DNA of 64,000 nucleotides from a virus. Lineage: Duplodnaviria > Caudoviricetes. Below, in pieces: positions 1 to 13,405 of the stretch. Below the pieces are notes generated by a model. That model saw only the letters and a program-made list of their open reading frames with translations. It did no database searches and was not told the DNA's origin. The stretch lies in IMG/VR virus record IMGVR_UViG_3300014204_000113, positions 32,001 to 96,000 of that record. The stretch is one strand, 5' to 3'. The number at the start of each line of letters is the position of its first letter. The first letter of the stretch is position 1. A program made the position numbers and the translations under genes.

Positions 1-13
1 GCGAAGAAATTTC

Positions 14-42
14 TTGACAAGCCAACCATAAAAATTTAAGAT
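14..42 (+). promoter_or_regulatory. sigma70-type promoter of the ubiquitin-like operon
   Basis: TTGACA-17nt-TAAGAT followed by AAGGAGG RBS before ATG 66. Confidence 0.7.
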
Positions 43-65
43 AATTTCATAAGGAGGACAAACGA

Positions 66-1385
66 ATGTGGTTCATGCTTGACAATCACCTTGACGCAGA
101 AAAAATCTTGACCAAGGCTTTAATACCCACTCTGCTTCACACAATCACCACCCCAAGAGAAATCAAAGGGTTGGCTTTCCCGGAAGAAGAAAAAGACAAG
201 GTGCTCAAACTTCTGAAATTGGAAGAAAAAACTTGGGCGACGGTTAGAACCAACGATGACAATATTCTCCTTATGGAAGCACAAGGAAGGGTCGTCAAAA
301 TTGGCGGTCATCTTCAAACTTGGGATGAATTTTCTGGAGTTTTAGAAGAATACGCAGAATTGCTAAATGTTAAAATAGTGGTTTCAAATCCACATGTGAA
401 TCAAATTATAGGAAAAGGAGTAACTTTAGAACCAGAGGCAGAAGAAGGAACTTTGTTTATAAAATTCTATGCCTCCCCTGAAAAAACCAAAGCAAAATCA
501 TACAAAGAAGTTTTCGGTTTTAAATTAGGAACAAGTCAAAGCGATGGAGTAGAGCCTTCCGGTCAAGGACAACCAATTATTGACCCTTCTTCTGAAACCA
601 CCATCGCAGAAGTAATTGGTGACAGCCTTTATGTTCTATTCGATTTGCCTCATAATGACGGTTTGAAAAACAGCCAAGAAATTATGCGACAAATCATGGA
701 ACAATATTCTCTTCTGCAAAAGTCGCCAGAAGAATTGAAAAAATGGCGAGAAGAAGCGAAAGAAAGAGAAGCGACCAAAACAAAAACTGCCTATGTTAAG
801 GAGTGTTCAAAAAGATTAAAAGCAGTAAAGAATGAACTGATAGAGGATATTGAAGGAAATGAAAACGAACTAAACGCATTAGGGCAAAGAATTACTGAAT
901 TGGTGAGACAAATTGATGAGAAGAAGAAACAACTCTTCGGTTTTGACGACCTTGGAGATAGGGAAGAAAGATTTTCTCAAGAATATGATAAGTTGTTAGG
1001 ATTGCCTCATGTCAAGAAAGTTTTGGTTGAAGAGGGCAAGGTTAAAGTTTTCACCAATACTATCTTTCTTGAAAGTGATGGCAAGGTCTATGAAATGGGG
1101 GATTATCGCATTGACATTCCTACACAAGACACCAATTTAAAAATCGCCAATCTGAGGATGGAAGAGTTGACTGGGCAAACATATTTCCACCATCCTCATG
1201 TTTCTGGAAATAAAGATGGCGCAACTCCTTGTTTGGGGAACATTTCAGAAGGTGTTATGCGTCTAATTGGTGCATATGAATTTTCAGTAGTGGCACAAAT
1301 TCTCATTGAATATCTACATAGCAATAGATATCAAGACGAATTGACAACTTACTGGAAGCCAATAAAGAAAGCAAAAAGGGCGTAA
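66..1385 (+). CDS. Coiled-coil protein with C-terminal prokaryotic E2 (ubiquitin-conjugating-like) domain
   Basis: HHPHV...PCLGN motif typical of UBC-fold catalytic region; long coiled coil; first gene of operon with JAB, E1 and Ubl genes. Confidence 0.7.
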   Translation: MWFMLDNHLDAEKILTKALIPTLLHTITTPREIKGLAFPEEEKDKVLKLLKLEEKTWATVRTNDDNILLMEAQGRVVKIGGHLQTWDEFSGVLEEYAELLNVKIVVSNPHVNQIIGKGVTLEPEAEEGTLFIKFYASPEKTKAKSYKEVFGFKLGTSQSDGVEPSGQGQPIIDPSSETTIAEVIGDSLYVLFDLPHNDGLKNSQEIMRQIMEQYSLLQKSPEELKKWREEAKEREATKTKTAYVKECSKRLKAVKNELIEDIEGNENELNALGQRITELVRQIDEKKKQLFGFDDLGDREERFSQEYDKLLGLPHVKKVLVEEGKVKVFTNTIFLESDGKVYEMGDYRIDIPTQDTNLKIANLRMEELTGQTYFHHPHVSGNKDGATPCLGNISEGVMRLIGAYEFSVVAQILIEYLHSNRYQDELTTYWKPIKKAKRA

Positions 1386-1417
1386 ATGAAATTAAAGATA
1401 AATAAAAGGAGGAACAA

Positions 1418-2242
1418 ATGAAAATTGAATCGGTAGTTCCAATCATTGCCATAACCCCAGACGCCAAGGCAAAATTAGATGCCTATATCGGCATCTGCAA
1501 AGAAGAAATTAGTGGTTTGGGTGTTGTAAGGAGATTGCCACAATGGAAATTCCTTATTGAAGACATCATTCTCTTTTCCCAAGAAGTGACGGCAGGAACG
1601 ACAAACCTTGATGAAGAAACCCTTCACCAATTTTTGACCGAAGCTGTGGAACAAAATTTGGACCCATCGGTTTTAAAATTGTGGTGGCATAGCCACGTCA
1701 ACGGGTCTTGCTTTTGGTCTGGAATTGACACTGGGACTATTAACAAGGCGTTATTAGGTGACGATTGGATGTTATCTATTGTAGGCAATAAAAAAGGCGA
1801 ATACAAATGCCGTCTTGACACCTACGATCCAGTCCGCATCGCCTTAGATGAATTATCCTTGCAGTTGCAGCAAACAACTGATGTCGGCCTTTGGAAGCAA
1901 TTGAAGGCCGAAGTTAAAGAAAAGGTGAGAAAAAAGAAATATACCACATATCAAGGTGGTGGTGGAATTTGGGAAAAAGGAAAGGTTTGGGATAAAAAGA
2001 ATTATAAGTGGGCGTGGCCGGATGAAATTGATGAGACCGATGAAAACGACCAACCCATCCTTCCCAAACATTCTTCAAAGAATTCTTGCGGGGAATGCAA
2101 GGATTTTCTTGAAGGAAAAAAAACTTGCAAACAAAACTTTGCCAGTGGAAAATTTATGGCTGCTTGCAGACTATTTGAACCTATCCAAATAGGCGAAAGT
2201 GAAGAAACAAAAGAACAAGACTTGCAAGTGGGGATGGTTTAA
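1418..2242 (+). CDS. JAB/MPN+ metallo-isopeptidase (prokaryotic JAB)
   Basis: EISG...WWHSH-x7-S-x2-D JAMM motif; C-terminal Cys cluster. Confidence 0.85.
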   Translation: MKIESVVPIIAITPDAKAKLDAYIGICKEEISGLGVVRRLPQWKFLIEDIILFSQEVTAGTTNLDEETLHQFLTEAVEQNLDPSVLKLWWHSHVNGSCFWSGIDTGTINKALLGDDWMLSIVGNKKGEYKCRLDTYDPVRIALDELSLQLQQTTDVGLWKQLKAEVKEKVRKKKYTTYQGGGGIWEKGKVWDKKNYKWAWPDEIDETDENDQPILPKHSSKNSCGECKDFLEGKKTCKQNFASGKFMAACRLFEPIQIGESEETKEQDLQVGMV

Positions 2243-2904
2243 TGGTAAATCAAGAACCCGATTTTTGGAGGCAGTTTGACATTCTTCGGCCTACCGACTT
2301 AGAATTCCCTGTTCATATGGGAGGTTGTGGAGGTATCGGATCGCCCACTGCTTTGGCTATGGCGAAAATGGGGTGTAAAGATATGACCTTACATGACCAT
2401 GACACTGTGGAAAACCACAATTTACCCAATCAGATTTACCGATTGACAGACGTGGGAATGTTCAAGGTGGAAAGTTTGGCCAAAACCATTGAAGACTTCA
2501 CTGGTGTAATACCAAAAACTTCCCTCGAAAAGATAACTGCCGATTCAAAATTGGTCGGGTTAGTAGTGTCTGGGGTTGATTCTATGGCAGCTAGGAAAGA
2601 AATTTGGCAAGCCATCAGATATAAAACGACAATCCCTTTGTATGTGGATGCCAGAATGGGGGCGGAAGTTTGTCGCATCTATTCCATCAGGCCGACTAAT
2701 CCCATTGATGTAGCGATGTATGAAGGGACGTTGTATGATGATGCAGAAGCCCAAGAATTGCCTTGCACGGGCAGAAGCATTATCTACAATGTATTTATGA
2801 TCGCGGCATTGATTTGCAGTCAAATCAAGAAATTTGCTCGTGGACAAGAGTTCAATAAAGAAGTTATCTTTGATTTGGTTACATTGATGTGTTTGACTGA
2901 GTGA
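2242..2904 (+). CDS. ThiF/MoeB family E1-like ubiquitin-activating enzyme
   Basis: GCGGIGS nucleotide-binding loop, DHDTVENHNLPNQ, K-V, VDS-R, DARM, C-terminal ELPC cysteine; TAATG coupling to JAB gene. Confidence 0.9.
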   Translation: MVNQEPDFWRQFDILRPTDLEFPVHMGGCGGIGSPTALAMAKMGCKDMTLHDHDTVENHNLPNQIYRLTDVGMFKVESLAKTIEDFTGVIPKTSLEKITADSKLVGLVVSGVDSMAARKEIWQAIRYKTTIPLYVDARMGAEVCRIYSIRPTNPIDVAMYEGTLYDDAEAQELPCTGRSIIYNVFMIAALICSQIKKFARGQEFNKEVIFDLVTLMCLTE

Positions 2905-2967
2905 AACTATCAACTTTAAATAAATCTATCATGAGAATAGGAGGAAAATAAAAGGGATAACAAACAG

Positions 2968-3153
2968 ATGTTTATCAAGGTGGTGTGGAAGGGGAAAGTA
3001 ACCGAAGTTATCCTTCCCCAAAATGGGACAACGGGAGATGCGTTGAAAGCGGCCCAAATCCCATCAAGTCAAGTAACTGGAATAACCGTAACCGGAGTTC
3101 GCTGCTGCGCTGATACCCAATTGAGACCTGACGACGCGGTTTACGCAACTTAA
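2968..3153 (+). CDS. Ubiquitin-like (beta-grasp) protein lacking C-terminal GG
   Basis: Paralogous to 3189-3395 (MFIKV...GxTxGDALxxA...DTQL) but ends VYAT. Confidence 0.65.
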   Translation: MFIKVVWKGKVTEVILPQNGTTGDALKAAQIPSSQVTGITVTGVRCCADTQLRPDDAVYAT

Positions 3154-3188
3154 CCATCAACCTTAAACAAAAAAGGAGGAATTAAAGC

Positions 3189-3395
3189 ATGTTCGTTAAA
3201 GTGGCAAAGTTGGGCGCGAAAGTGGAAGAAGTGAATCTGGCTACCGGGGCCACCGTGGGCGAAGCCCTGAATGTGGCGGGCGTCACCGGGGACAACATGG
3301 AGATGAAGTTCAACGGGATGGTGGTTCAGAAGGACACCCAACTCCATGCGGATGGCGTTTTGACCCTCGTAGGCCAGATCAAGGGCGGCGCATAA
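3189..3395 (+). CDS. Ubiquitin-like modifier (ThiS/MoaD-like fold) ending in GG-A
   Basis: 68 aa beta-grasp pattern, C-terminus IKGGA; strong RBS; GC-rich codon usage. Confidence 0.85.
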   Translation: MFVKVAKLGAKVEEVNLATGATVGEALNVAGVTGDNMEMKFNGMVVQKDTQLHADGVLTLVGQIKGGA

Positions 3396-3407
3396 TCTAA
3401 CCTAAAC

Positions 3408-3447
3408 CGGCAGCCTTGTGATGTTTGCAAGGCTGCCGAACCTTTTT
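3408..3447 (+). terminator. Rho-independent terminator
   Basis: 11-bp stem CGGCAGCCTTG/CAAGGCTGCCG followed by T-run. Confidence 0.8.
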
Positions 3448-3462
3448 AAAATTGGGAGAATC

Positions 3463-3486
3463 ATTTGTATATTTGTATATTTGTAT
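3463..3486. repeat. Tandem 8-mer ATTTGTAT x3
   Basis: Direct reading; lies just beyond the TnpB right end. Confidence 0.8.
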
Positions 3487-3518
3487 ATAAAAATCAGTGG
3501 TGAATGTTCTATCTAAAG

Positions 3519-4631
3519 TCAGACAGCTTTTAGAACCAAGTTCAAAGACTCCATCCCGAGTCTTAAAATATTAATCGCGGCATTGTGATCACGATCAATA
3601 ACTAAATTACAATGAGGGCAAGAATGAGTTCTAACAGACAACTCTTTATCAACCAAGTTATAACATCCAGAACACATCTTGCTGGTGTTTCTTGGATTTA
3701 CGAAGATTGTTTGTCTACCAGCATATTCTGCTTTGTATTTAACAAAATTCATAAATTGATTCCAAGCAACATTACTTATGGATTTTCTAATTCCTTTAAA
3801 GGTAGTTTGTTGCATACTTTTAATATCAAGTTTTTCAAAAACTATTATTTGATTTTCATTTATGATTCTTCTGCTGAGTTTATGTGCAAAATCTGTTCTT
3901 TTGTTTGTGATTTTAGAATAAATTTTAGCAACAATTTTCTTGAGTTTATTTCTTTTTCTAGAACATTTTTTCGCATTAGAAAATTTACTTTGATATCTTG
4001 CAAGTTTCTGTTCAGATTCTTTGAAAAATCTAGGATTAGGAATCTTCTCGCCATCAGAGAAAGTAGCAAAAGAAACAAGACCCACATCAATACCAATAGG
4101 TTTCTCAATATTTGGCAAAATATTCGTTTCAACTTCACAACTAAAACATGCAAACCACTTGTTTGTAGAATCTCTTCTGATAGTGAGAGTTTTAATCTTG
4201 CCCTCAATATTCCTATGTTGTTTGATTCTAACAGCGCCTATTTTAGACATCTTCAAAAACTTATCTTTAATCTTAAAGCCGCCTTGAGTAAATGTGAAAC
4301 TATTATACCTATCATAACCTTGAAATCTAGGATAACCGGGTTTATCGCCTTTCTTAACTCGTCTAAAGAAAGATTTAAAAGCTTTATCAAGTCTATTTTG
4401 TGCATCTCTAAGGCAATGAATATGAATATTTTCAAATTCAGGTTTTTCTTTTTTCCATTGAGGCAAAAGATTATAAGTATCATAAAGACTAAAACTTTTC
4501 TTTTCTTCTTCCCAGCTTTTCTTTCTAGTTTCAAGCGTTTTGTTGTAAATCCAGCGACAAGAATCAAGATAGGCTTGCAAAGATTTTTCTTGTTTACTAG
4601 TAGGATAAATCCTGAATTTAAAAGTTTTCAT
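3519..4631 (-). CDS. tnpB: TnpB RNA-guided endonuclease (IS200/IS605 family), no tnpA
   Basis: MKTFKFRIYPT HTH start, GYPRF, RuvC GIDVG / VFEKL / DRDHNAAINI, CSGC..CPHC zinc finger; start placed at ATG 4631. Confidence 0.93.
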   Translation of the reverse strand: MKTFKFRIYPTSKQEKSLQAYLDSCRWIYNKTLETRKKSWEEEKKSFSLYDTYNLLPQWKKEKPEFENIHIHCLRDAQNRLDKAFKSFFRRVKKGDKPGYPRFQGYDRYNSFTFTQGGFKIKDKFLKMSKIGAVRIKQHRNIEGKIKTLTIRRDSTNKWFACFSCEVETNILPNIEKPIGIDVGLVSFATFSDGEKIPNPRFFKESEQKLARYQSKFSNAKKCSRKRNKLKKIVAKIYSKITNKRTDFAHKLSRRIINENQIIVFEKLDIKSMQQTTFKGIRKSISNVAWNQFMNFVKYKAEYAGRQTIFVNPRNTSKMCSGCYNLVDKELSVRTHSCPHCNLVIDRDHNAAINILRLGMESLNLVLKAV

Positions 4632-4643
4632 GCTCACATCTAG

Positions 4644-4694
4644 ATTATAACATATGGAAAAAGACAATGCAAGCTAGTAGTTCAAATTTTTGTA
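4644..4694 (-). promoter_or_regulatory. Phage-type promoter driving tnpB
   Basis: Minus strand TACAAAAATTTGAACT-N6-TTGCAT-17-TATAAT; same upstream element at 13434 and 46464. Confidence 0.7.
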
Positions 4695-4733
4695 CTGAGG
4701 ATGAAAATAATTTGGTTTGAGTGAAAATTTTTC

Positions 4734-4762
4734 TTGACAAGGTGATTTTAATGATTTAATAT
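4734..4762 (+). promoter_or_regulatory. sigma70-type promoter
   Basis: TTGACA-17-TAATAT upstream of AAGGAGG and ATG 4794. Confidence 0.65.
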
Positions 4763-4793
4763 GAACTAAGAAATTGATTTGCAAGGAGGTTTA

Positions 4794-5984
4794 ATGGAAC
4801 CAAAACCCGGCACCAAAGTAAAGTTATTAAAAACAAGTCGATTCTATAATCAAGCGCCTGATGAAATTGGAATAATTGTTGAAAGTGTATATGTTGATGA
4901 CCCTGATACTGATTGGTGCAAAGTACAATTTCCAAATAAAACAGACGCATATCGTTTCAGAGGAGAAGGAATAGACTTGGAATTAGCTGAAAAATGGACT
5001 TATAAAAAAGTTGGTGAATTAAAACCAAAAGATTTGGAAGATGAACAACCGACTTCTTGTGTATATAAGGATGGAATAGTCTTATTGTTACCAAAGAAGT
5101 TTTATGAACTATTTGAAGAAAAACAAGTTGAAATTACCGGACAAATAATTTCTTCTCATTGGGGGTGGCCAGCTAATGGGAAATTCCGTTTCATAAAAGA
5201 AGGTTGGCGTGGTTATTGGTATAATAAAGAAAAAGAATTTCTTGACGACCTTTTAAAAGCAATTGCCATCGCTAATGAAGAACCTTTTACTGAAATAAAA
5301 GAAGAAAACACATTGGAAAAAGCAATAATGGAAAAAGCAAAACAAGAACAGGAAGAAATTGATTTAAAAGAATCAAGGAACAGGTATGCAAAAGAATGTA
5401 CAAAAAGATTAAAAAACAAGAGACAAGAATATGAAAAAAGAATTAAAGAATATGAAGAAGAAACAAAAGAAATTTCTCGGCGCTTAGTTGAATTGACTAG
5501 GAATATTGATGAAAATAAAAGGATGGTTTTTGGTTTAAACGATCAAAAAGACCAACTTGAAAGATATAAAGAAGAATATGACAAGTTATCAGAACTGCCC
5601 CATGTTAGGAAAGTTTTGGTAAAAAATGAGAAAATAACAGTATTCACCGACACAATATATTTATCTTACGAAAATGAAACCTATGAATTAGGTGAATATC
5701 AAATAAATTTTGAAGGACAAGTTAGAATAATTAACGAAAGACCTATATTTAACCCAACCCATGGCACTAATGGACAATGGTTTCATCATCCCCATGTTTT
5801 TGAAAAAGATGGAAGCAATACTTGTTTGGGAAATATTACAGCAGGAATTCGTGAATTAGTAGGAAAATATGAATATGCAATAGCCACTGCAATTCTGATT
5901 GATTTTTTACATACTTGCAAATATCCTCATTATTTACAAAGGAATTGGAAGCCAATGGAGAAAAAGGAGGCATTATGGGCCTAA
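4794..5984 (+). CDS. Coiled-coil + E2-like protein, paralogue of 66-1385
   Basis: Shares YxKECxKRLK, EYDKL..LPHV.KVLV, HHPHV..CLGNI with ORF 66-1385; different N-terminus. Confidence 0.7.
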   Translation: MEPKPGTKVKLLKTSRFYNQAPDEIGIIVESVYVDDPDTDWCKVQFPNKTDAYRFRGEGIDLELAEKWTYKKVGELKPKDLEDEQPTSCVYKDGIVLLLPKKFYELFEEKQVEITGQIISSHWGWPANGKFRFIKEGWRGYWYNKEKEFLDDLLKAIAIANEEPFTEIKEENTLEKAIMEKAKQEQEEIDLKESRNRYAKECTKRLKNKRQEYEKRIKEYEEETKEISRRLVELTRNIDENKRMVFGLNDQKDQLERYKEEYDKLSELPHVRKVLVKNEKITVFTDTIYLSYENETYELGEYQINFEGQVRIINERPIFNPTHGTNGQWFHHPHVFEKDGSNTCLGNITAGIRELVGKYEYAIATAILIDFLHTCKYPHYLQRNWKPMEKKEALWA

Positions 5985-6469
5985 TGGAATTGATCGCAGA
6001 AGGATTAGATGTTTCTGGAAGTTATTTTGATTGGAATAGTTTGCCTGTAGTTGAAAGAAAAGTAGTTTTGGTTGAACCAGAAAAATTCATTCATATGACA
6101 AACAGGGAAATGAAGTCAATTTTGAACAATTCTCTTGTAGAAAAAGTAGAAGAGAACAATTCATGCTATGGAATCGTTGCCCACATAAAGCCATTCACCA
6201 TCAAATATGCTGCCTATTTTGGAAAAGAACCAATGGAAATGAATAATGGTTGCAGAATTTTACTGAGAACAAGAGGAAAAGGTCCAATGGTAAAATTTTA
6301 TCATTATAGATATCCAGAAAGAATTGGTCATCATTATAATGTAAGGACAAATGGGGGTGTTTGTTTGAGAAATCTTGAAAAACCAATTTCTAAACTGCTC
6401 AAAGCAAAAGAATACGCGGTAGCACTTAGTTTGTTAATTGAATTTATCCAAGTATTTAATGGAGCATAA
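5975..6469 (+). CDS. Divergent E2-like protein
   Basis: HHYNV..GGVCLRN and KEYAVALSLLIEF tail shared with other E2-like ORFs; RBS AAGGAGG before ATG 5975. Confidence 0.5.
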   Translation: MGLMELIAEGLDVSGSYFDWNSLPVVERKVVLVEPEKFIHMTNREMKSILNNSLVEKVEENNSCYGIVAHIKPFTIKYAAYFGKEPMEMNNGCRILLRTRGKGPMVKFYHYRYPERIGHHYNVRTNGGVCLRNLEKPISKLLKAKEYAVALSLLIEFIQVFNGA

Positions 6470-6499
6470 ATCAACCAACTAAATAAGGAGGAACAAAAA

Positions 6500-6949
6500 A
6501 TGCCAAGGTATCGAGTAACGGAAAAGATTTATCGCGATTTGGAAGTGAAGCAATACGGCATCCAAGTGTTTGACGTGGAGGCTGATAACGAAGGTGAAGC
6601 TAAAGAGATGTCTTCAGATGAAGGCGAATTGGTCTCTGAAACTTGGGAACCTGTAGCACAAGAAAAAATGGAAGAAGCCATAAAAGAAGCTGATGAAGAT
6701 GATTATCATGACTATGACGAAAACATCAGCGTCGTCCAAATTGGTGGTTCTTCCACAGACCATATGTTTGTCAAAGTGGTCTACAAAGGCAAAGTGGATG
6801 AAGTGATGATTTCTCGCGGTGGCGTCATCAGGGAAGCGTTAGGTGCCGCGAATATCTCTTCAAGAGATGTCATCAACCTCACTGTCACCGGCATCGCTTG
6901 TTGTCTGGATACTGAATTGCGCCCCGATGACATGGTTTATGTGGACTGA
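6500..6949 (+). CDS. Acidic domain fused to C-terminal ubiquitin-like domain
   Basis: C-terminal 61 aa closely match ORF 2968-3153 (MFVKVVYKGKV...CCLDTELRPDD). Confidence 0.7.
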   Translation: MPRYRVTEKIYRDLEVKQYGIQVFDVEADNEGEAKEMSSDEGELVSETWEPVAQEKMEEAIKEADEDDYHDYDENISVVQIGGSSTDHMFVKVVYKGKVDEVMISRGGVIREALGAANISSRDVINLTVTGIACCLDTELRPDDMVYVD

Positions 6950-6951
6950 TT

Positions 6952-6984
6952 TAATGGGGTCGTATTAAGCGACCCCATTATTTA
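6952..6984 (+). terminator. Rho-independent terminator
   Basis: 11-bp stem TAATGGGGTCG/CGACCCCATTA + TTT. Confidence 0.75.
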
Positions 6985-7016
6985 ACTAAAAGGAGGAAAA
7001 ATATGATATTGAAGTT

Positions 7017-8276
7017 TTGAAAGTTGTTCTAGAAGAAGAAATGCAATCAACATTCGCAATCAAAGGTGTCCGCAAAGATAAGAATTTTAAACCTAACTAT
7101 AAGACAATTGATAAAATAAAATCAAAATATGATTCTGTCTATCTTGAAATATCAGATTACAACATTAACAAAACCCAACTAAATACAGGATACACTAGCA
7201 GAAGTTTTTTGTCTAATGGCTCTAACATTTTCTATATGGCACCAACTATGGCACCAGTGGACTATAATCCTCAATTTCCTAACTACCTTGAACATCCAGA
7301 AACTTGTTTTGAATATTATCGCCAAAGAGGAATAACCCATCTGATAGGCGAAGAAAAATACATGGGAAGCAGAGCAGAATTGCTCATATTTAAAGACAAA
7401 GAAAAAGCAAATATGATGGGATATGAACATCCAGTAATTGTCAATTCTCGCTCTGGTTATGAATTTTTTGATGATGAAGAAACTAAAAATAAAATTCACG
7501 ATGATATAAAAGATAAAATGAAGGGAATATGTGACTTCATCATATTAGATGCTGAAATCATGCCCTGGAATTATAAGGCTGATAAATTAATAATAAAAGA
7601 ATTTCTTTCACCTATAGAATCAACTTTGCTATCAAGAAAATATACTGATAAAGGTTCATTAGAAAATGCATGGAAGGCTTTGCTTTCGCTTGGAAGGTTT
7701 TCAAAAGAATCACCAATTGAAATAAGACCTTTTCATATATTGGCAAAAGGCAGTGTCGTTGAAAAGAAAGGAAAAAGAATATTTTCAAATGTTGAAGTTG
7801 GTTTTTTAAAAAATCATATTCAACATATGACAGAAATCGAATCTCTTACAAAGAATGGAATTATTTTTAAACCTTGTAAATGGCATTGTTTTGATTTGAA
7901 TGACCAATATCTAAGAAACGAATCTATTAAAAAATGGGAAGAATTTTGCCAAATAGGTGAAGGTTTTGTTTATAAACCTTATGATTTCTTAAATTATGCG
8001 CCCAATTACCACCTGATTCAACCTGCTATGAAAGTCAGAGGCAAAGAATATTTGAGGATAATTTATGGAATTGACTATCTTGAACCTGAATGTTTTCAAA
8101 GACTTACCCATAGACACACCATAAGAAAGAGAATTTTGGCCATCCAAGAGCAAGAATTGGCAATAAAAATCTTGCTTTCCTTCCTGAAAGGGAATAGAAT
8201 AATGAAAGAAAAATTTGTGGCAGCTTTCATAGGAATGGAATCAGTAAACATGGCGAATATTGACGCTACGTTATAA
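7017..8276 (+). CDS. Stand-alone Pnkp-type RNA ligase/adenylyltransferase domain
   Basis: APTMAP, LEHP, EEKYMGSRA, LDAEIMPW, GEGFVYKP, QPAMKVRGKEYLRIIYG motifs of the bacterial Pnkp C-terminal module. Confidence 0.85.
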   Translation: MKVVLEEEMQSTFAIKGVRKDKNFKPNYKTIDKIKSKYDSVYLEISDYNINKTQLNTGYTSRSFLSNGSNIFYMAPTMAPVDYNPQFPNYLEHPETCFEYYRQRGITHLIGEEKYMGSRAELLIFKDKEKANMMGYEHPVIVNSRSGYEFFDDEETKNKIHDDIKDKMKGICDFIILDAEIMPWNYKADKLIIKEFLSPIESTLLSRKYTDKGSLENAWKALLSLGRFSKESPIEIRPFHILAKGSVVEKKGKRIFSNVEVGFLKNHIQHMTEIESLTKNGIIFKPCKWHCFDLNDQYLRNESIKKWEEFCQIGEGFVYKPYDFLNYAPNYHLIQPAMKVRGKEYLRIIYGIDYLEPECFQRLTHRHTIRKRILAIQEQELAIKILLSFLKGNRIMKEKFVAAFIGMESVNMANIDATL

Positions 8277-8342
8277 TTATGCTAATAGTAACCATTATCA
8301 TAATAGCTTTACTTTTATCTATATTCCATAGTGAGTGAATAA

Positions 8343-8810
8343 ATGGCGTCGATTAAAAAATTAATGAAAATAGACAGAGAGATTTCAAATTGTATTGATG
8401 ATAGAGAAATCAATTTTATTGAAGCAGAGAATATAATCTCTACAATTTGTGAGAAACTTAATTTACCAAAGATGACAATTAAATTTTGTTTTTATGAAAA
8501 GAAAGCTGATTGGTTTTTGAGAAAATTATGCAGATTTTTCAACAAAGAAAAACTTTGTGATTTGTATGAAGAAAAAATAGGAAAAAGAAGATTAAGAGTT
8601 GGAGAAGCATATCATGAAATAAATTATATAGTATTATATTCTTCTGGTCAAAATATTAGTACACTATTGCATGAGATTGCTCACTTATTGCCAAATGGAG
8701 TTAATCATGGGAAGAATTGGATAAAGAATTTTAAAGAAGTAGTGAAAATATATAACAAGGAAATTTCAATATGCGCCTGTCGCCAAGCGGACATGGCAGA
8801 AGACTTCTAA
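8343..8810 (+). CDS. SprT-like zinc metallopeptidase-domain protein
   Basis: LLHEIAH...HGKNW motif. Confidence 0.6.
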   Translation: MASIKKLMKIDREISNCIDDREINFIEAENIISTICEKLNLPKMTIKFCFYEKKADWFLRKLCRFFNKEKLCDLYEEKIGKRRLRVGEAYHEINYIVLYSSGQNISTLLHEIAHLLPNGVNHGKNWIKNFKEVVKIYNKEISICACRQADMAEDF

Positions 8811-8855
8811 TCTTCCGGGGAACCATCGGAGGTTCGAATCCTCCCAGGCGTGCCA
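8773..8855 (+). tRNA. tRNA-Arg(TCT) with extended variable loop
   Basis: GCGCCTG/CAGGCGT acceptor, GAAGA-CTTCTAA-TCTTC anticodon arm, GGAGG-TTCGAAT-CCTCC T arm, encoded CCA. Confidence 0.85.
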
Positions 8856-8888
8856 TAATATAAATTCTCAAAGTTAAAGGATAAACGA

Positions 8889-9443
8889 ATGCACGAATTT
8901 GGATCGGGTCCAATCTTTGATGTTGGTGTTTATATCGGAAGATTTAATCCTATTCATAAAGGACATCAAAGAACAATTGAACAGATGATGTTTAATCACA
9001 CTATCAACCATTCTTTATTAATGATTGGTTCTCCAAATGTAAATCTTTCTTTAAGAAATTTATTTACATATAAAGAGCGTAGAGATTTTATAAAAGCAAT
9101 ATATCCAAATATTAGAATTGCTCCATTGCCAGATCAAATATCAGATGAAGATTGGTTTTCTTCACTAATAGATATAATTGAAATATCTTTTCCATTTTAT
9201 CATAATGTGAACATATATTGCGGAGATATTAAAGATTTAGAACACTTTAATTATCATAACAAAGCAACCGTAAAAATTATAGATAGATATGAAGAGCAAG
9301 TATATTCTGCTACAGAAGTAAGGCGTTGTATTATGATGGGTGAAATTGAACCACTAACTAAACTGATACATCTTGATTTATTATATCCAGTTTATGAGTT
9401 AGGAAGGAAAAGACTTGAAGAAATGTTAAGAGGAGAAAAATAA
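8889..9443 (+). CDS. Nicotinamide-nucleotide adenylyltransferase (NadM-like)
   Basis: GRFNPIHKGH (HxGH), GS..N, ER, SATEVR. Confidence 0.85.
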   Translation: MHEFGSGPIFDVGVYIGRFNPIHKGHQRTIEQMMFNHTINHSLLMIGSPNVNLSLRNLFTYKERRDFIKAIYPNIRIAPLPDQISDEDWFSSLIDIIEISFPFYHNVNIYCGDIKDLEHFNYHNKATVKIIDRYEEQVYSATEVRRCIMMGEIEPLTKLIHLDLLYPVYELGRKRLEEMLRGEK

Positions 9444-10273
9444 TGGGCAAAGAACTTAAAGCAGAAAACTTAACTATTAGCGTCCCCAATGTGGGTTGTG
9501 ATAAAAACTGTCCTTATTGTGTAAGCAAAATGACTGGATATATAAAATCAGATATTGTTAAAATGAATATGAATATAAAAAAGGTTATAAATATTTCACA
9601 AATAGCTGAAGTTACTTCTGTCTTATTTACTGGTAAAGGAGAGCCAACTTTAAATTTTGAAGCAATAGAACAGCTTTCTTTCAATTTTAAAAATCTATTC
9701 CCATTAGAATTACAAACAAATGGGGTCTTTTTATCTAAAAATCTAAATAAAGTTGATTCTTTATTAATTCAAGGGTTTGATATAATAGCGATATCAATAG
9801 ATACAGAATTACAATTAGAAAATTATCAAAAGCTATTTAAAAAAATAATTGATTTAAATATGATTTGTAGATTAACCATCAACATCACAAATAAACTTGA
9901 TAAAGAATTCACATTTGAAAAGACGATAAAATATTGTACTGAAAATGGAATACAACAATTAACTTTAAGAAGAGTAGCAATCCCCCAAAAACCATTAGAT
10001 AAAAAAGTGGTTGGTTGGATCAAAGAAAACGCTCCTCTTGATTTATATGAAAATGTAATGAGGGATGTTTTTCTAATTATAAAAGAAAAAGGCAATTTAA
10101 TCAGAATATTAAATCAAGGGACAAAAATATATGATATTGATGGCGTTTCTTTTACTTACTCTGATTATTGTTTACAAGAAAAAGACAATGGAAATAATAT
10201 TCGATCATTAGTCTTTCAGGAAGATGGACATTTATACACTTCTTGGGCTTCTAAGGCGTCAATTTTATTTTAA
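9443..10273 (+). CDS. Radical SAM protein
   Basis: CDKNCPYC cluster motif, TGKGEP, LQTNG. Confidence 0.85.
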   Translation: MGKELKAENLTISVPNVGCDKNCPYCVSKMTGYIKSDIVKMNMNIKKVINISQIAEVTSVLFTGKGEPTLNFEAIEQLSFNFKNLFPLELQTNGVFLSKNLNKVDSLLIQGFDIIAISIDTELQLENYQKLFKKIIDLNMICRLTINITNKLDKEFTFEKTIKYCTENGIQQLTLRRVAIPQKPLDKKVVGWIKENAPLDLYENVMRDVFLIIKEKGNLIRILNQGTKIYDIDGVSFTYSDYCLQEKDNGNNIRSLVFQEDGHLYTSWASKASILF

Positions 10274-10285
10274 AGGAGAAAAATA

Positions 10286-11668
10286 ATGATAAATCAAATC
10301 TTAAATACAGACTCATACAAACTTTCTCATTTTCTTCAATATCCACCAAACACAGAACAAGTTTCTTGTTACGTAGAATCTAGAGGAGGAAGGTTTAATA
10401 GAACCTTATTTTTTGGCTTACAAATATTTCTAAAAGAATATATGACAAAATTTATAACTAAAGAAGATATTGAACTTGCTAATCTTTTTAGTTCTGAACA
10501 TGGAGAACCTTTCAACATGAAGGGTTTTTTGGAATTACAAGAGTTGGGTTATTGGCCTGTACAAATTCAAGCAATTCCAGAAGGAACAATTATTCAAACC
10601 AATAATGTGTTGGTTCAGATAACCAACACCGACCCTAGATTCTATTGGCTACCATCTTTTCTTGAAACAATGTTATTGAGAGGAGTTTGGTATCCAACTA
10701 CTGTGTGTACTTTATCTTGGATGTGTAAACAATTAATCAAAGATTTCATGTTAAAAACTTCTGATAATCCAGACGATATCAACTTCAAATTACATGATTT
10801 TGGAGCAAGAGGGGCATCTTCATTAGAAACTGCATCAATAGGTGGTTGTTCCCATTTGGTTAATTTCATGGGCACAGATACTATGGTTGGTATTTTAGCA
10901 GCACAAAAATATTACAATGCCAAAATGGTTGGTTTTTCAATTCCAGCCGCAGAGCACTCTACCATCACTTCTTGGGGTGGAGTGGAAGGTGAACTGGATT
11001 CTTACAAAAACATGTTAAATCAATTTGCCAAACCTGGAAAAATAGTAGCAGTAGTGTCTGATTCGTACGATATATTCAAAGCTATTAAAGAATTATGGGG
11101 AGGACATTTAAAAAATAAAATAATTGACTCAAAAGCCACTATAGTGATTCGACCTGATTCTGGAAATCCAGTAACAGTAGTTAGAGATGTAATCAAAGAA
11201 CTGATGAATGTTTTTGGATACGAAACTAACACTAAAAATTATGATGTTCTTCCACCATATATCAGAGTAATACAAGGAGACGGAATTGAATATGATTCTA
11301 TCTTTGATATTTTAACTGAGATGACTAATTGTAAATTATCAACAGATAATATATCTTTTGGTATGGGTGGTGCTTTGCTTCAAAATTTAGATAGAGATTT
11401 TTTAAAATTTGCAATGAAAACATCTGCTATTAAAATAAATGGTAATTGGATTGATGTTTATAAAGACCCTATAACAGATACTACTAAAAGGTCAAAAAAG
11501 GGTAGATTGGCTTTATGTAAGAATAATATCAATCAGTTTATCACAATTCGTGAAAATGAAGCAATTGCTTTTGGCGCAGAAAATCTGCTAAAAGATGTTT
11601 ATCTTAATGGGAAAATTCTTCGTGAATTTGAGTTTGAAGAAGTCAGAAAAAACGCTTCTGGAAATTAA
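10286..11668 (+). CDS. nadV: Nicotinamide phosphoribosyltransferase (Nampt)
   Basis: TDSYKLSH, LHDFGARG, SIPAAEHS, VVSDSYD, IRPDSG, GMGGALLQ, SKKGRL. Confidence 0.95.
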   Translation: MINQILNTDSYKLSHFLQYPPNTEQVSCYVESRGGRFNRTLFFGLQIFLKEYMTKFITKEDIELANLFSSEHGEPFNMKGFLELQELGYWPVQIQAIPEGTIIQTNNVLVQITNTDPRFYWLPSFLETMLLRGVWYPTTVCTLSWMCKQLIKDFMLKTSDNPDDINFKLHDFGARGASSLETASIGGCSHLVNFMGTDTMVGILAAQKYYNAKMVGFSIPAAEHSTITSWGGVEGELDSYKNMLNQFAKPGKIVAVVSDSYDIFKAIKELWGGHLKNKIIDSKATIVIRPDSGNPVTVVRDVIKELMNVFGYETNTKNYDVLPPYIRVIQGDGIEYDSIFDILTEMTNCKLSTDNISFGMGGALLQNLDRDFLKFAMKTSAIKINGNWIDVYKDPITDTTKRSKKGRLALCKNNINQFITIRENEAIAFGAENLLKDVYLNGKILREFEFEEVRKNASGN

Positions 11669-11697
11669 AAATCGCAACTTAAAAGGAGGAACAAATC

Positions 11698-12174
11698 ATG
11701 ATGGTATTCATAATTTTGGCAAGTACGCTTATTTTGACTGTTTCTTGGTTGTATTTCTTAAAAAAGTATGGAGAAGGAACATATAACGAAACAAACGTCA
11801 CAGATATTCTATTTGGTTTTTCTGTTGTAGGATGGATAATTTCAACATTTACTTTGGTCACATTGCTTATTGTCTATACACACCATGCAACAAACTTGGG
11901 CACCATTCGCCAAGGATATTCTGTAGTTAAAGTCCAACAAGATAGGTTAAATAGGTTAAGAACCGATTTGACGCTTGTAAATGATTCTATCAAACAAGGA
12001 AATGTGGCTTTAGTCAACTCTGACAGCCCTATTAAAAGTTTAATAGACCAAATTGCTTTGGCTGAAACTTCTGTAGCAGAAGCCAATCTTAAAATTGCTA
12101 ATGCAGAAGTTAGTATCGCTCAACGTAAAGCTGGACCAGGATATTTTATTGTTTCTTGGTTTGGAGACAAATAA
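11698..12174 (+). CDS. Membrane protein (2 TM + coiled coil)
   Basis: Hydrophobic segments; AGGAGG RBS. Confidence 0.6.
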   Translation: MMVFIILASTLILTVSWLYFLKKYGEGTYNETNVTDILFGFSVVGWIISTFTLVTLLIVYTHHATNLGTIRQGYSVVKVQQDRLNRLRTDLTLVNDSIKQGNVALVNSDSPIKSLIDQIALAETSVAEANLKIANAEVSIAQRKAGPGYFIVSWFGDK

Positions 12175-12322
12175 CTTATGGAGGAAATTCAATCAATTTA
12201 TATTGGTAATGGAAAATTTATTCAATCCACTTCTAATCATCAATTTCTAACTGAATTTGGTTATAAAGAATTGAAAGATTTATCACCAGAAGAAATTTCT
12301 AATATCAAACGAAGAGAGGAAA

Positions 12323-12817
12323 ATGACTATGAGAAAATTTAAGAAATTCATTTGTTTTATCACTGGCATAACTTTAGTCAGATATATAAAAAGAAGGATT
12401 GAATTAAAGAAAGAATTGGAATTGATTTCAACCTTTCCTAAAGTTAAAAGCTTTCTTTTCAAAAAGAAAAATTTAATTGTTAAAACAATGCCGATTAAGA
12501 TGGACGGACACTTATTGGGTGATTTTGAAATAATCATAAAAACAAAAAATATATATGATGTTTTAAATATTCAAAATTTAACTGGGAAAAGAAGAATAAG
12601 AGACTCAATATATCACCATCCACATATTTGGTCTAGTTGGATATTAAATACAGAACCAACCTTTTGTCTAGGGAATATTTCAGTAGAAGTAAAATGGTTA
12701 ATTCAAGAAAAAGAATATTCCGCAGTCGTTCTTCTTCTAATCCAGTTTTTAGAAGAAGGATATGGTTGGGAAGAATGGGAAAAAGAAGAATGTCTATCTC
12801 ATTGGCCTGAAATATAA
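12323..12817 (+). CDS. E2-like protein (paralogue 4)
   Basis: HHPHIW...FCLGNI...KEYSAVVLLLIQFL. Confidence 0.6.
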   Translation: MTMRKFKKFICFITGITLVRYIKRRIELKKELELISTFPKVKSFLFKKKNLIVKTMPIKMDGHLLGDFEIIIKTKNIYDVLNIQNLTGKRRIRDSIYHHPHIWSSWILNTEPTFCLGNISVEVKWLIQEKEYSAVVLLLIQFLEEGYGWEEWEKEECLSHWPEI

Positions 12818-12829
12818 AGGAGGAATAAA

Positions 12830-13405
12830 ATGTATAACTATTATGATTTTACAAATGATTGTACGATTGGATATTGGTCAGCAACAGAAAACTTTTTTAA
12901 ACCAGAACTAGTTAAAAAAATCGAACCTATTAAAATTGAATTGTCTGCAAATGATTTAGAAATCATAAGAAGTTTTTCTGAAATTCAAGAAATTTCTCTT
13001 CTTAAAGATAAATTATCAATACTAACCAACATAATAAATATGTCAAACCATGAATTAGGACAATATCAAATTGAAATTAATAAAACTTTTGAAAAATATG
13101 ATGCCATAAGCGCGATATACATCTGCAATCAAACAAGAACTGTAGATGTAGACAAGTTTCATGACACTAATGGAAGTTTTGTTTTCCACCATCCTCATAT
13201 CTGGGCAAGAGGAGATAATGTTAAAAACACGGAAATTTGTTTTGGTAATATAAAAGAATACATTGAAAAAATGTTGATAGCAAAAGAACCTATCGTATTA
13301 ATAAGCACAATTTTGGAATATCTCAAGAATGGCTATGGATGGCGTCATAACAAAAAAGAATACTTGAAGTGTTGGCCTGAAGTAAATTCTTCGCCTCGTC
13401 TATAA
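12830..13405 (+). CDS. E2-like protein (paralogue 5)
   Basis: HHPHIW...ICFGNI...ILEYL; shares GYGW...WPE tail with 12323-12817. Confidence 0.6.
   Translation: MYNYYDFTNDCTIGYWSATENFFKPELVKKIEPIKIELSANDLEIIRSFSEIQEISLLKDKLSILTNIINMSNHELGQYQIEINKTFEKYDAISAIYICNQTRTVDVDKFHDTNGSFVFHHPHIWARGDNVKNTEICFGNIKEYIEKMLIAKEPIVLISTILEYLKNGYGWRHNKKEYLKCWPEVNSSPRL

Follow-up and report, generated by a model that had tools for sequence, protein, structure and literature searches.

The window analyzed here is a stretch of 64,000 nucleotides that corresponds to bases 32001-96000 of a 187,988-bp IMG/VR entry (IMGVR_UViG_3300014204_000113), and its first genes form an operon which we propose to encode a small ubiquitin-like conjugation cascade carried by a phage. 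A preliminary description of the DNA had named five genes in one unit, and all five are present on the plus strand: a gene for an E2-like protein of 439 aa (E2-1, 66-1385), a gene for a JAMM/MPN+ metallopeptidase of the JAB type (274 aa, 1418-2242), a gene for a minimal ThiF-type E1 (220 aa, 2242-2904), and two genes for small beta-grasp, ubiquitin-like (Ubl) proteins named Ubl1 (61 aa, 2968-3153) and Ubl2 (68 aa, 3189-3395). The E2-1 gene is preceded by an AAGGAGG ribosome-binding site at 51-57 and the JAB gene by another at 1406-1412, a strong AAGGAGG site also precedes the last gene (Ubl2), and the ATG of the E1 gene overlaps the stop codon of the JAB gene (TAATG). Downstream of Ubl2, at 3408-3438 on the plus strand, lies an intrinsic terminator with a 14-bp stem that includes 8 GC pairs and is followed by a T run. 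Its folding energy is -24.2 kcal/mol (z -6.3), and it is retained in a sister phage (L003) with two compensatory pair changes. The earlier claim of one promoter-to-terminator unit therefore stands from the ribosome-binding site of the first gene to the strong terminator, all on a single strand. The promoter part of the claim comes down to a consensus match, a sigma-70-like candidate at 14-42 on the plus strand (TTGACA, 17 nt spacer, TAAGAT; 10 of 12 positions), and the region holds no excess of promoter-like matches (26 observed, 19.7 expected).

The operon is truly phage-borne, since the entry is a complete genome (rated 100% complete) with direct terminal repeats and contains a large terminase gene, matched by the PHROG model phrog_2 at 6.5e-25, as well as a gene for a tape measure protein. 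Pfam Terminase_6N found no match across the phage genome, where the PHROG terminase model did. A search for a tyrosine integrase in the phage found none. Early genes and replication genes surround the operon, which is over 90 kb distant from the tail genes, and the window as a whole encodes a DNA polymerase, helicases, a ligase, NAMPT, a CCA-adding enzyme and five tRNAs. A megablast search with positions 1-12000 of the window against 50,697 phage records gave no match, and DNA of this phage turned up again in several studies, in metagenomes of landfill and groundwater.

Relatives of the operon were collected by scanning IMG/VR with a JAB alignment, which gave 49 viral loci on contigs of 8-193 kb, and the components at each locus were called by profile. 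The complete set of E2, JAB, E1 and Ubl is present in 37 of the 49 loci, while seven are without a detectable E2, three are without a detectable Ubl, one has JAB and E1 only, and one, where the contig end cuts the locus, has E2 and Ubl. The gene order is shuffled among the loci (E2-JAB-E1-Ubl, Ubl-E2-JAB-E1 and E1-Ubl-E2-JAB). All-against-all clustering over the 49 loci revealed no other shared gene in more than 6 loci, and those that reached such numbers were antisense shadow open reading frames. With no further shared family to add, the four families make up the entire system, and neither an E3 nor a sulfur enzyme belongs to it. All five genes in the window are under purifying selection: compared with the sister phage L003, in which the operon proteins are 82-99% identical, the ratio of nonsynonymous to synonymous substitution rates (dN/dS) is 0.065 for E2-1, 0.067 for JAB, 0.026 for E1, 0.13 for Ubl1 and 0.020 for Ubl2, at dS values of 0.14-0.54.

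Fold and conservation of the E2-like protein

The first protein of the operon had been called E2-like because of an HPH..C motif, a call for which the UBC fold is the decisive point. In E2-1 the motif lies within the C-terminal domain (aa 296-439), with HHPH at aa 375-378 and CLGN at aa 389-392, so that H376-P377-H378 is encoded by nucleotides 1191-1199 and Cys389 by 1230-1232. When the C-terminal 150 aa were modelled with AlphaFold2 and the family alignment, a UBC fold was obtained, consisting of a helix, four strands and three helices with a predicted local distance difference test (pLDDT) score of 92.8, an outcome that favours the preliminary description on the test it had itself named. A Foldseek search with this model returned E2 enzymes in all of the top 50 rows, with weak E-values (0.02). 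Comparison with 48,161 chains by VIA-align gave UBE2S as the best match (Z 7.2, root-mean-square deviation 3.9 A over 118 residues), and nearly every row was an E2, UEV or RWD protein. The family profile of the E2 matches human UbcH7 with an E-value of 0.001, placing HPH on the HPN motif and Cys389 on the catalytic Cys86. Each of these lines is modest alone, but together they agree on a predicted UBC fold for the C-terminal domain of E2-1.

A HMMER search run exhaustively with the final 150 residues of E2-1 yielded 878 cluster representatives (E <= 0.001), so that the family comprises at least 878 clusters at 50% identity. The E2 domain is located at the C-terminus in nearly all homologues, although the protein lengths range from 110 to 830 aa. 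Cys389 never varies in alignments of 54, 30 and 36 homologues, and H376-P377-H378, G391 and N392 vary rarely or not at all. The consensus from the cysteine onward reads CLGNIxEGxxxLIGxYEY, with no conserved downstream histidine. Existing protein families capture very little of this: Pfam UQ_con matches one of the 54 homologues (2.9e-5) and not the window protein, and the Pfam families Prok-E2_A to Prok-E2_E have no match in the 54 and 36 homologues. Single-sequence scans with Pfam, PHROGs, PADLOC and NCBIfam found nothing for E2, JAB or Ubl1, and these three were thus identified only through family profiles and fold. In the Atlas, the E2 domain has unannotated clusters as its neighbours, and 50-82% of their members with known taxonomy are viral.

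Human and other eukaryotic E2s such as UBE2L3/UbcH7 and UBE2S share with the phage protein the predicted full UBC fold, including the C-terminal helices, and an HPx motif before the catalytic cysteine. The phage E2 differs from them in its low identity (about 12-19%), in having HPH for HPN, in the longer spacing to the cysteine and in the conserved G-N after it. It also differs in architecture, a coiled coil and an N-terminal domain being joined to the UBC domain in one protein. In the full-length model of E2-1 (pLDDT 86.5), an N-terminal region of about 200 aa made up of two subdomains (1-107 and 129-190) is followed by a long helix (221-293) and then by the UBC domain. The N-terminal region has no Pfam match in 90 homologues besides coiled-coil noise and no Atlas match. 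Foldseek with the full model gave weak rows resembling class-I glutamine amidotransferases alone (E 0.05), and the VIA search with the full model was dominated by the long helix. The family is mostly viral and unannotated, and its motif is nearer to that of eukaryotic E2s than are the motifs of the E2s in the bacterial Bil or Bub systems. On a tentative reading taken up below, the family, with its classical-type HPx..Cys motif and full UBC fold, would constitute a large virus-borne reservoir of eukaryote-like E2s with a bearing on the origin of the ubiquitin system.

The peptidase, the E1 and the tags

The second gene had been described as encoding a JAMM peptidase, and the protein indeed carries the full E..HxH..S..D site, consisting of E30, H91-x-H93, S101 and D104 (nucleotides 1505-1729). 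We found 102 homologues, and these five residues are invariant in the 40 that were aligned. The family profile matches Rpn11 at 6e-7 with the motifs aligned, and 20 of 40 family members are matched by Prok-JAB. The C-terminal part of the window protein contains a CxxC-x10-C-x13-C arrangement (aa 224-250, window 2087-2167) which could bind zinc; the C-terminal tails vary across the family.

The third protein consists of a single ThiF domain with the sequence GGCGGIGS at aa 27-34, and its identification as a ThiF-type E1 was borne out by Pfam PF00899, which it matches at 2.4e-17 (63.4 bits against a cut-off of 28.1). Residues R10-Q11, the GxGxxGS motif, D52xD54, K75, D113, R118, D135 and R137 are conserved in 50 members of the family, and Cys175 in the sequence PCTGR (nucleotides 2761-2775) is present in 50 of 50. 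The median length of the E1 family is 223 aa over the 49 loci. The Rossmann part matches the PADLOC E1-E2 (Cap2) models and the NCBIfam model 6A-MBL cap2_3, and the best E1 match carries the PDB codes 9EGB and 9EGC. An N-terminal R10-Q11 pair is conserved in the E1 family in place of the arginine of the NLxRQ motif.

The last two genes had been read as encoding two beta-grasp proteins, one of them ending in GG-A, and this reading held. Ubl1 and Ubl2 are paralogues (38% identity, E 3e-8). Ubl2 is a tag of the ThiS/MoaD/SAMP2 class that ends in IKGG-A, whereas Ubl1 ends in AVYAT without any Gly-Gly and stops at the end of the last strand. Ubl1 occurs only in this phage and the sister phage L003, contains a vicinal cysteine pair (Cys46-Cys47), and is predicted to be non-conjugatable. 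Over its entire length, including the terminal Gly-Gly, the profile of the tag family aligns with Pyrococcus SAMP2 (8e-10), and 15 of 30 family members match ThiS and 5 of 30 match SAMP2. The terminal Gly is nearly invariant across the family, and in 41 of the 50 distinct tags a [G/A]G lies at the C-terminus with a tail of 0-7 unconserved residues after it (none in 9, one in 15 and two in 14). A conserved [G/A]G with a variable tail is the signature of precursors that need trimming by a peptidase, so that the family-wide pattern supports the earlier suggestion that the JAB protein would trim the Ubl precursor to expose the Gly-Gly. Seven loci (L005, L006, L008, L009, L015, L036 and L039) have longer tags, 134-157 aa in length, in which an extension precedes the beta-grasp at the N-terminus, and these still end in GG and one residue.

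A predicted conjugation cascade weighed against its alternatives

We consider it probable, at roughly 0.7, that the operon encodes a self-contained ubiquitin-like conjugation cascade of the phage in which an E3 is not needed. Computation shows the folds and catalytic residues, the linkage of the genes, their purifying selection and their origin in a phage, and from these we infer every chemical step and the targets. Ubl2 would be made as a precursor ending in Gly-Gly-Ala, and the JAMM peptidase would cut off the terminal Ala and expose Gly67; the same enzyme may also reverse conjugates. The 220-aa E1, probably as a homodimer, would then adenylate Gly67 and take the tag as a thioester on Cys175, from where it would be handed to Cys389 in the UBC-fold domain of E2-1. 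The long helix and the N-terminal domains of E2-1 would choose the target, whose lysines would be modified without an E3. Four other E2 paralogues with differing N-termini are encoded further downstream (see below), and they would redirect the one tag to other targets. The idea that the phage carries its own protein-tagging system was already part of the preliminary description, and it draws support from the predicted UBC fold, the phage origin and the conserved four-part module. The cascade would be a very small one, with an E1 of 220 aa, a tag of 68 aa and an E2 core of about 150 aa. As the tag ends in IK-GG, trypsin would leave a K-GG remnant as in standard ubiquitin proteomics.

Several points weigh against a conjugation cascade. 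The fold matches of the E2 are consistent but weak, with a Foldseek E-value of 0.02 and a VIA Z-score of about 7, a Z-score that chance arrangements can reach. No single-sequence match in Pfam, PHROGs, PADLOC or NCBIfam backs either the E2 or the JAB protein. The E2 motif is HPH and not HPN, and the spacing to the cysteine is 11 residues compared with 8. On the side of the E1, the family does not conserve the arginine found in the NLxRQ motif of ThiF/MoeB (NLPNQ in the window protein; window 2395-2433, aa 52-64), and the 220-aa protein has no ubiquitin-fold domain (UFD) for the recruitment of an E2. The tag is nearest to beta-grasp proteins of the sulfur-carrier type (ThiS/MoaD/SAMP2) and not to ubiquitin proper, and an E2 is not detectable in 8 of the 49 loci.

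Some of these points would be expected if conjugation took place without an E2, in the manner of archaeal SAMPylation, with the E1 alone conjugating the tag and the UBC-fold proteins acting as substrates, scaffolds or pseudo-enzymes. The likeness to the SAMP2/UbaA/JAMM1 system comprises the tag profile with a terminal Gly-Gly, a small ThiF-type E1 and a JAMM partner (P. furiosus SAMP2-JAMM1, PDB 5LDA), and the SAMP2-like tag, the E1 without a UFD and the occurrence of JAB and E1 with no E2 detected by the model in 8 of the 49 loci, as well as in the phages FpV4 and cr128_1, all fit this explanation. However, SAMPylation proceeds without an E2, whereas the phage cassette includes a UBC-fold protein with an invariant cysteine, and the Gly-Gly of SAMPs is free from the outset, while a tail follows it in most of the phage tags. 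The conservation of the cysteine and HPH, invariant or nearly so over hundreds of diverged homologues, would be unexpected for a scaffold, and the loci without an E2 may hold E2s too diverged for the model. Taken together this makes tagging without an E2 quite improbable in our judgment.

An even less probable alternative is that the Ubl is a sulfur carrier, which after adenylation by the E1 would be turned into a thiocarboxylate and pass its sulfur on to tRNA, to a cofactor or into modified DNA, while the JAB protein would only process it. The models for such a pathway are ThiS/ThiF, MoaD/MoeB and TtuB/TtuC. The tag family is closest to SAMP2, MoaD, TtuB and ThiS, the best E1 matches are ThiF, MoeB and MccB, and the phage possesses tRNAs and a CCA-adding enzyme. 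Moreover, Cys175 of the E1 would correspond in position to ThiF Cys184, the acyl-persulfide cysteine. Against this, the E1 is far below the cut-offs of all the NCBIfam equivalogs of the sulfur pathways (ThiF, MoeB, UbaA and PRTRC ThiF), the best score being 63.6 bits against 159. The absence of thiamine or molybdopterin genes near the operon, pointed out previously, extends to the whole phage genome, in which ThiG, MoaE, a TtuA-type PP-loop ATPase and rhodanese were not found, and no gene of this kind is common to the 49 loci. In 41 of the 49 loci the other genes are linked to a UBC-fold protein whose cysteine is invariant, a protein that would be superfluous in a sulfur relay.

Among characterized systems the gene content is the same as in Type I Bil (BilABCD, class 6d, PMC1779556), with separate genes for Ubl, E2, JAB and E1 and no E3, and Type II Bil corresponds to class 6c (Chambers et al., 10.1101/2023.09.26.559546). 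The Bil E2 is thought to pick its targets directly, as we suggest for E2-1. The residues after the conserved Gly of the Bil tag also need trimming: E. aridi BilA ends in Gly-Ala, compared with Gly-Gly-Ala in the phage tag, and in Type II Bil this Ala prevents ATP from binding at the E1 site, so that cleavage is required (10.1101/2023.09.26.559546). The enzymes themselves are different. The Bil E2 (BilB) lacks the classical upstream histidine and has a downstream histidine after its cysteine (CEHH) (PMC1779556; 10.1101/2023.09.26.559546), whereas the phage E2 has a classical-type H-P-H located 11 residues before the cysteine and no conserved downstream histidine. In addition, E2-1 has an N-terminal extension of about 290 aa with a long helix, unlike the Bil E2. 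BilD is a multi-domain E1 (PMC11601596), but the phage E1 is a single domain of 220 aa with its cysteine in the crossover region, and the alpha-helical protein that also belongs to Type I Bil has no counterpart in the phage cassette. Since the E2 and E1 features of Bil are lacking, the published descriptions set the cassette apart from Bil, and we class it as a variant of the prokaryotic E1/E2/JAB/Ubl operons rather than as a member of Bil.

Other prokaryotic conflict systems with E1-, E2- and JAB-type domains are Type II CBASS with Cap2/Cap3, 6A-MBL and Bub (classes 6a, 6b and 6e), which rely on E2-E1 or JAB-E1 fusions, on conjugation to a CD-NTase, or on Ser/Tyr oxyesters together with a DUF6527 protease (PMC11601596). 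The phage cassette, in contrast, consists of separate genes and has a cysteine active site, and no DUF6527 or CD-NTase partner is shared among the loci. A phage-borne pair of Ubl and JAB is also known from the tail proteins I and K of lambda and T1 (class 5, Iyer et al. 2006, PMC1779556), but that pair is part of the tail module and comes without E1 or E2, and the JAB carries a fusion to NlpC/P60. A role in tail assembly like that of the lambda proteins I and K was rejected, as the operon lies in the wrong module and includes both an E1 and an E2.

The question of who benefits from the tagging can be approached from the same comparison. Bil is a bacterial anti-phage system, and the phage cassette sits in phage genomes. 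It could still be a Bil-like defence borne by the phage, which tags structural proteins of competing phages and thereby brings about superinfection exclusion. Defence systems are carried by phages, the characterized Ubl-bearing relatives (Bil) are all directed against phages, Bub and CBASS are tied to defence, and the several E2s could correspond to several rival phages. We regard this explanation as unlikely, though less so than the sulfur carrier or tagging without an E2, because the E2, JAB and Ubl are not recognized by any PADLOC model, the defining E2 and E1 features of Bil are missing, and the phage, which is without a tyrosine integrase, has the cassette in its half for replication and counter-defence. 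The cassette is also nearly confined to viral contigs: among 185,579 species genomes only 21 matching loci were found, all of them in metagenome-assembled genomes (MAGs), mostly of Patescibacteria and Methylomirabilota, and many with the same four genes.

Our best guess for the role of the predicted cascade is a modification of host proteins early in infection, either for takeover of the host or for counter-defence, two of the roles that the preliminary description had listed, the third being inter-phage conflict. What bears on this is the genomic context. RNA repair and NAD salvage are known counter-defence functions of phages, and because the E2 paralogues interleave with genes for RNA repair and NAD salvage, the neighbourhood leans, by association, towards a host-directed or counter-defence use. 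A more specific version, in which phages run an E3-free tagging against the host as a mirror of bacterial Bil, and in which one tag and one minimal E1 feed five E2s whose N-terminal domains aim at different host proteins, for instance defence or housekeeping factors, early in infection, is put forward tentatively, and we hold it to be possible but not the likelier outcome. So far, bacterial ubiquitin-like conjugation has served the host in its fight against phages (Bil, CBASS Cap2/3 and probably Bub). If true, a complete cascade that dozens of different phages maintain under purifying selection would mark the first use of conjugation chemistry on the virus side in prokaryotes, with a parallel in the eukaryotic viruses that hijack ubiquitination. 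We found no published description of a phage-borne E1-E2-JAB-Ubl cascade, including in the literature on Bil, Bub and jumbo phages and in Iyer 2006.

Neighbouring genes and related loci

The phage encodes exactly five E2 domains, all inside positions 66-13405 of the window, together with one E1, one JAB and, as predicted, one conjugatable tag. The paralogues other than E2-1 are all on the plus strand. E2-2 (4779/4794-5984) lies just behind a TnpB insertion and probably has its true start at ATG 4794 rather than at TTG 4779, E2-3 is located at 5915-6469, and E2-4 (12323-12817) and E2-5 (12830-13405) are short. Behind E2-3 follows a gene for a 149-aa protein (6500-6949, plus strand) which has a C-terminal Ubl1-like domain without a Gly-Gly tail. 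The complete order downstream of the operon is the TnpB element, E2-2, E2-3, the gene for the 149-aa protein, a Pnkp-type RNA ligase gene (7017-8276, match 3e-63), a SprT-like gene (8343-8810), a tRNA-Arg gene, open reading frames at 8889-10273, NAMPT (10286-11668), E2-4 and E2-5. Upstream of the operon are small unknown genes and a gene with a GmrSD_N/ParB-like domain (PF03235, 4e-10). The latter encodes a protein of 187 aa and is located about 4 kb 5' of the operon (genome 27464-28024, corresponding to 3465-4025 of locus L078).

The TnpB gene itself occupies 3519-4667 on the minus strand, and the block 3400-4783 follows closely on the Ubl2 terminator as a polymorphic insertion. A contig of 7.9 kb from another landfill run joins 3400 directly to 4783, and in the sister phage L003 the Ubl2 stop codon (8960) is followed by the terminator and the E2-2 start (9040) with no TnpB between them. 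The terminator was also considered as a part of the TnpB element, an assignment that was rejected because L003, which is without TnpB, retains the hairpin. After the insertion of TnpB, a promoter-like site at 4734-4762 is now situated 5' of E2-2.

The GC content climbs along the operon, from 0.38 in E2-1 through 0.41 in JAB, 0.43 in E1 and 0.49 in Ubl1 to 0.57 in Ubl2, where the GC content at third codon positions is 0.74; the value for the window is 0.335. The sister phage has the same gradient, which could reflect acquisition from a GC-richer source or the codon bias of a highly expressed tag.

Among cultured or named phages, an adjacent pair of JAB and E1 genes is present in Flavobacterium phage FpV4 (L052, KT876724, 2686-4618) and in the crAss-like phage cr128_1 (L053, MT774392, 2498-4672). 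The pairs are annotated as "thiamine biosynthesis protein ThiF" and "contains metalloprotease domain", and the ThiF labels are probably wrong. The family hidden Markov models found no E2 or Ubl partner beside either pair, which divergence may explain, and hypothetical proteins of about 420-430 aa are encoded upstream of both. A further variation is seen in Methylomirabilota MAG contigs with GC contents of 60-69% (L060-L074), which carry an E2 of 378 aa together with JAB and have no E1 or Ubl detectable nearby. Finally, a viral contig of 105 kb (L047, 2667-10207) carries two sets of the genes, one in the order Ubl-E2-JAB-E1 and the other in the order JAB-E1-Ubl.

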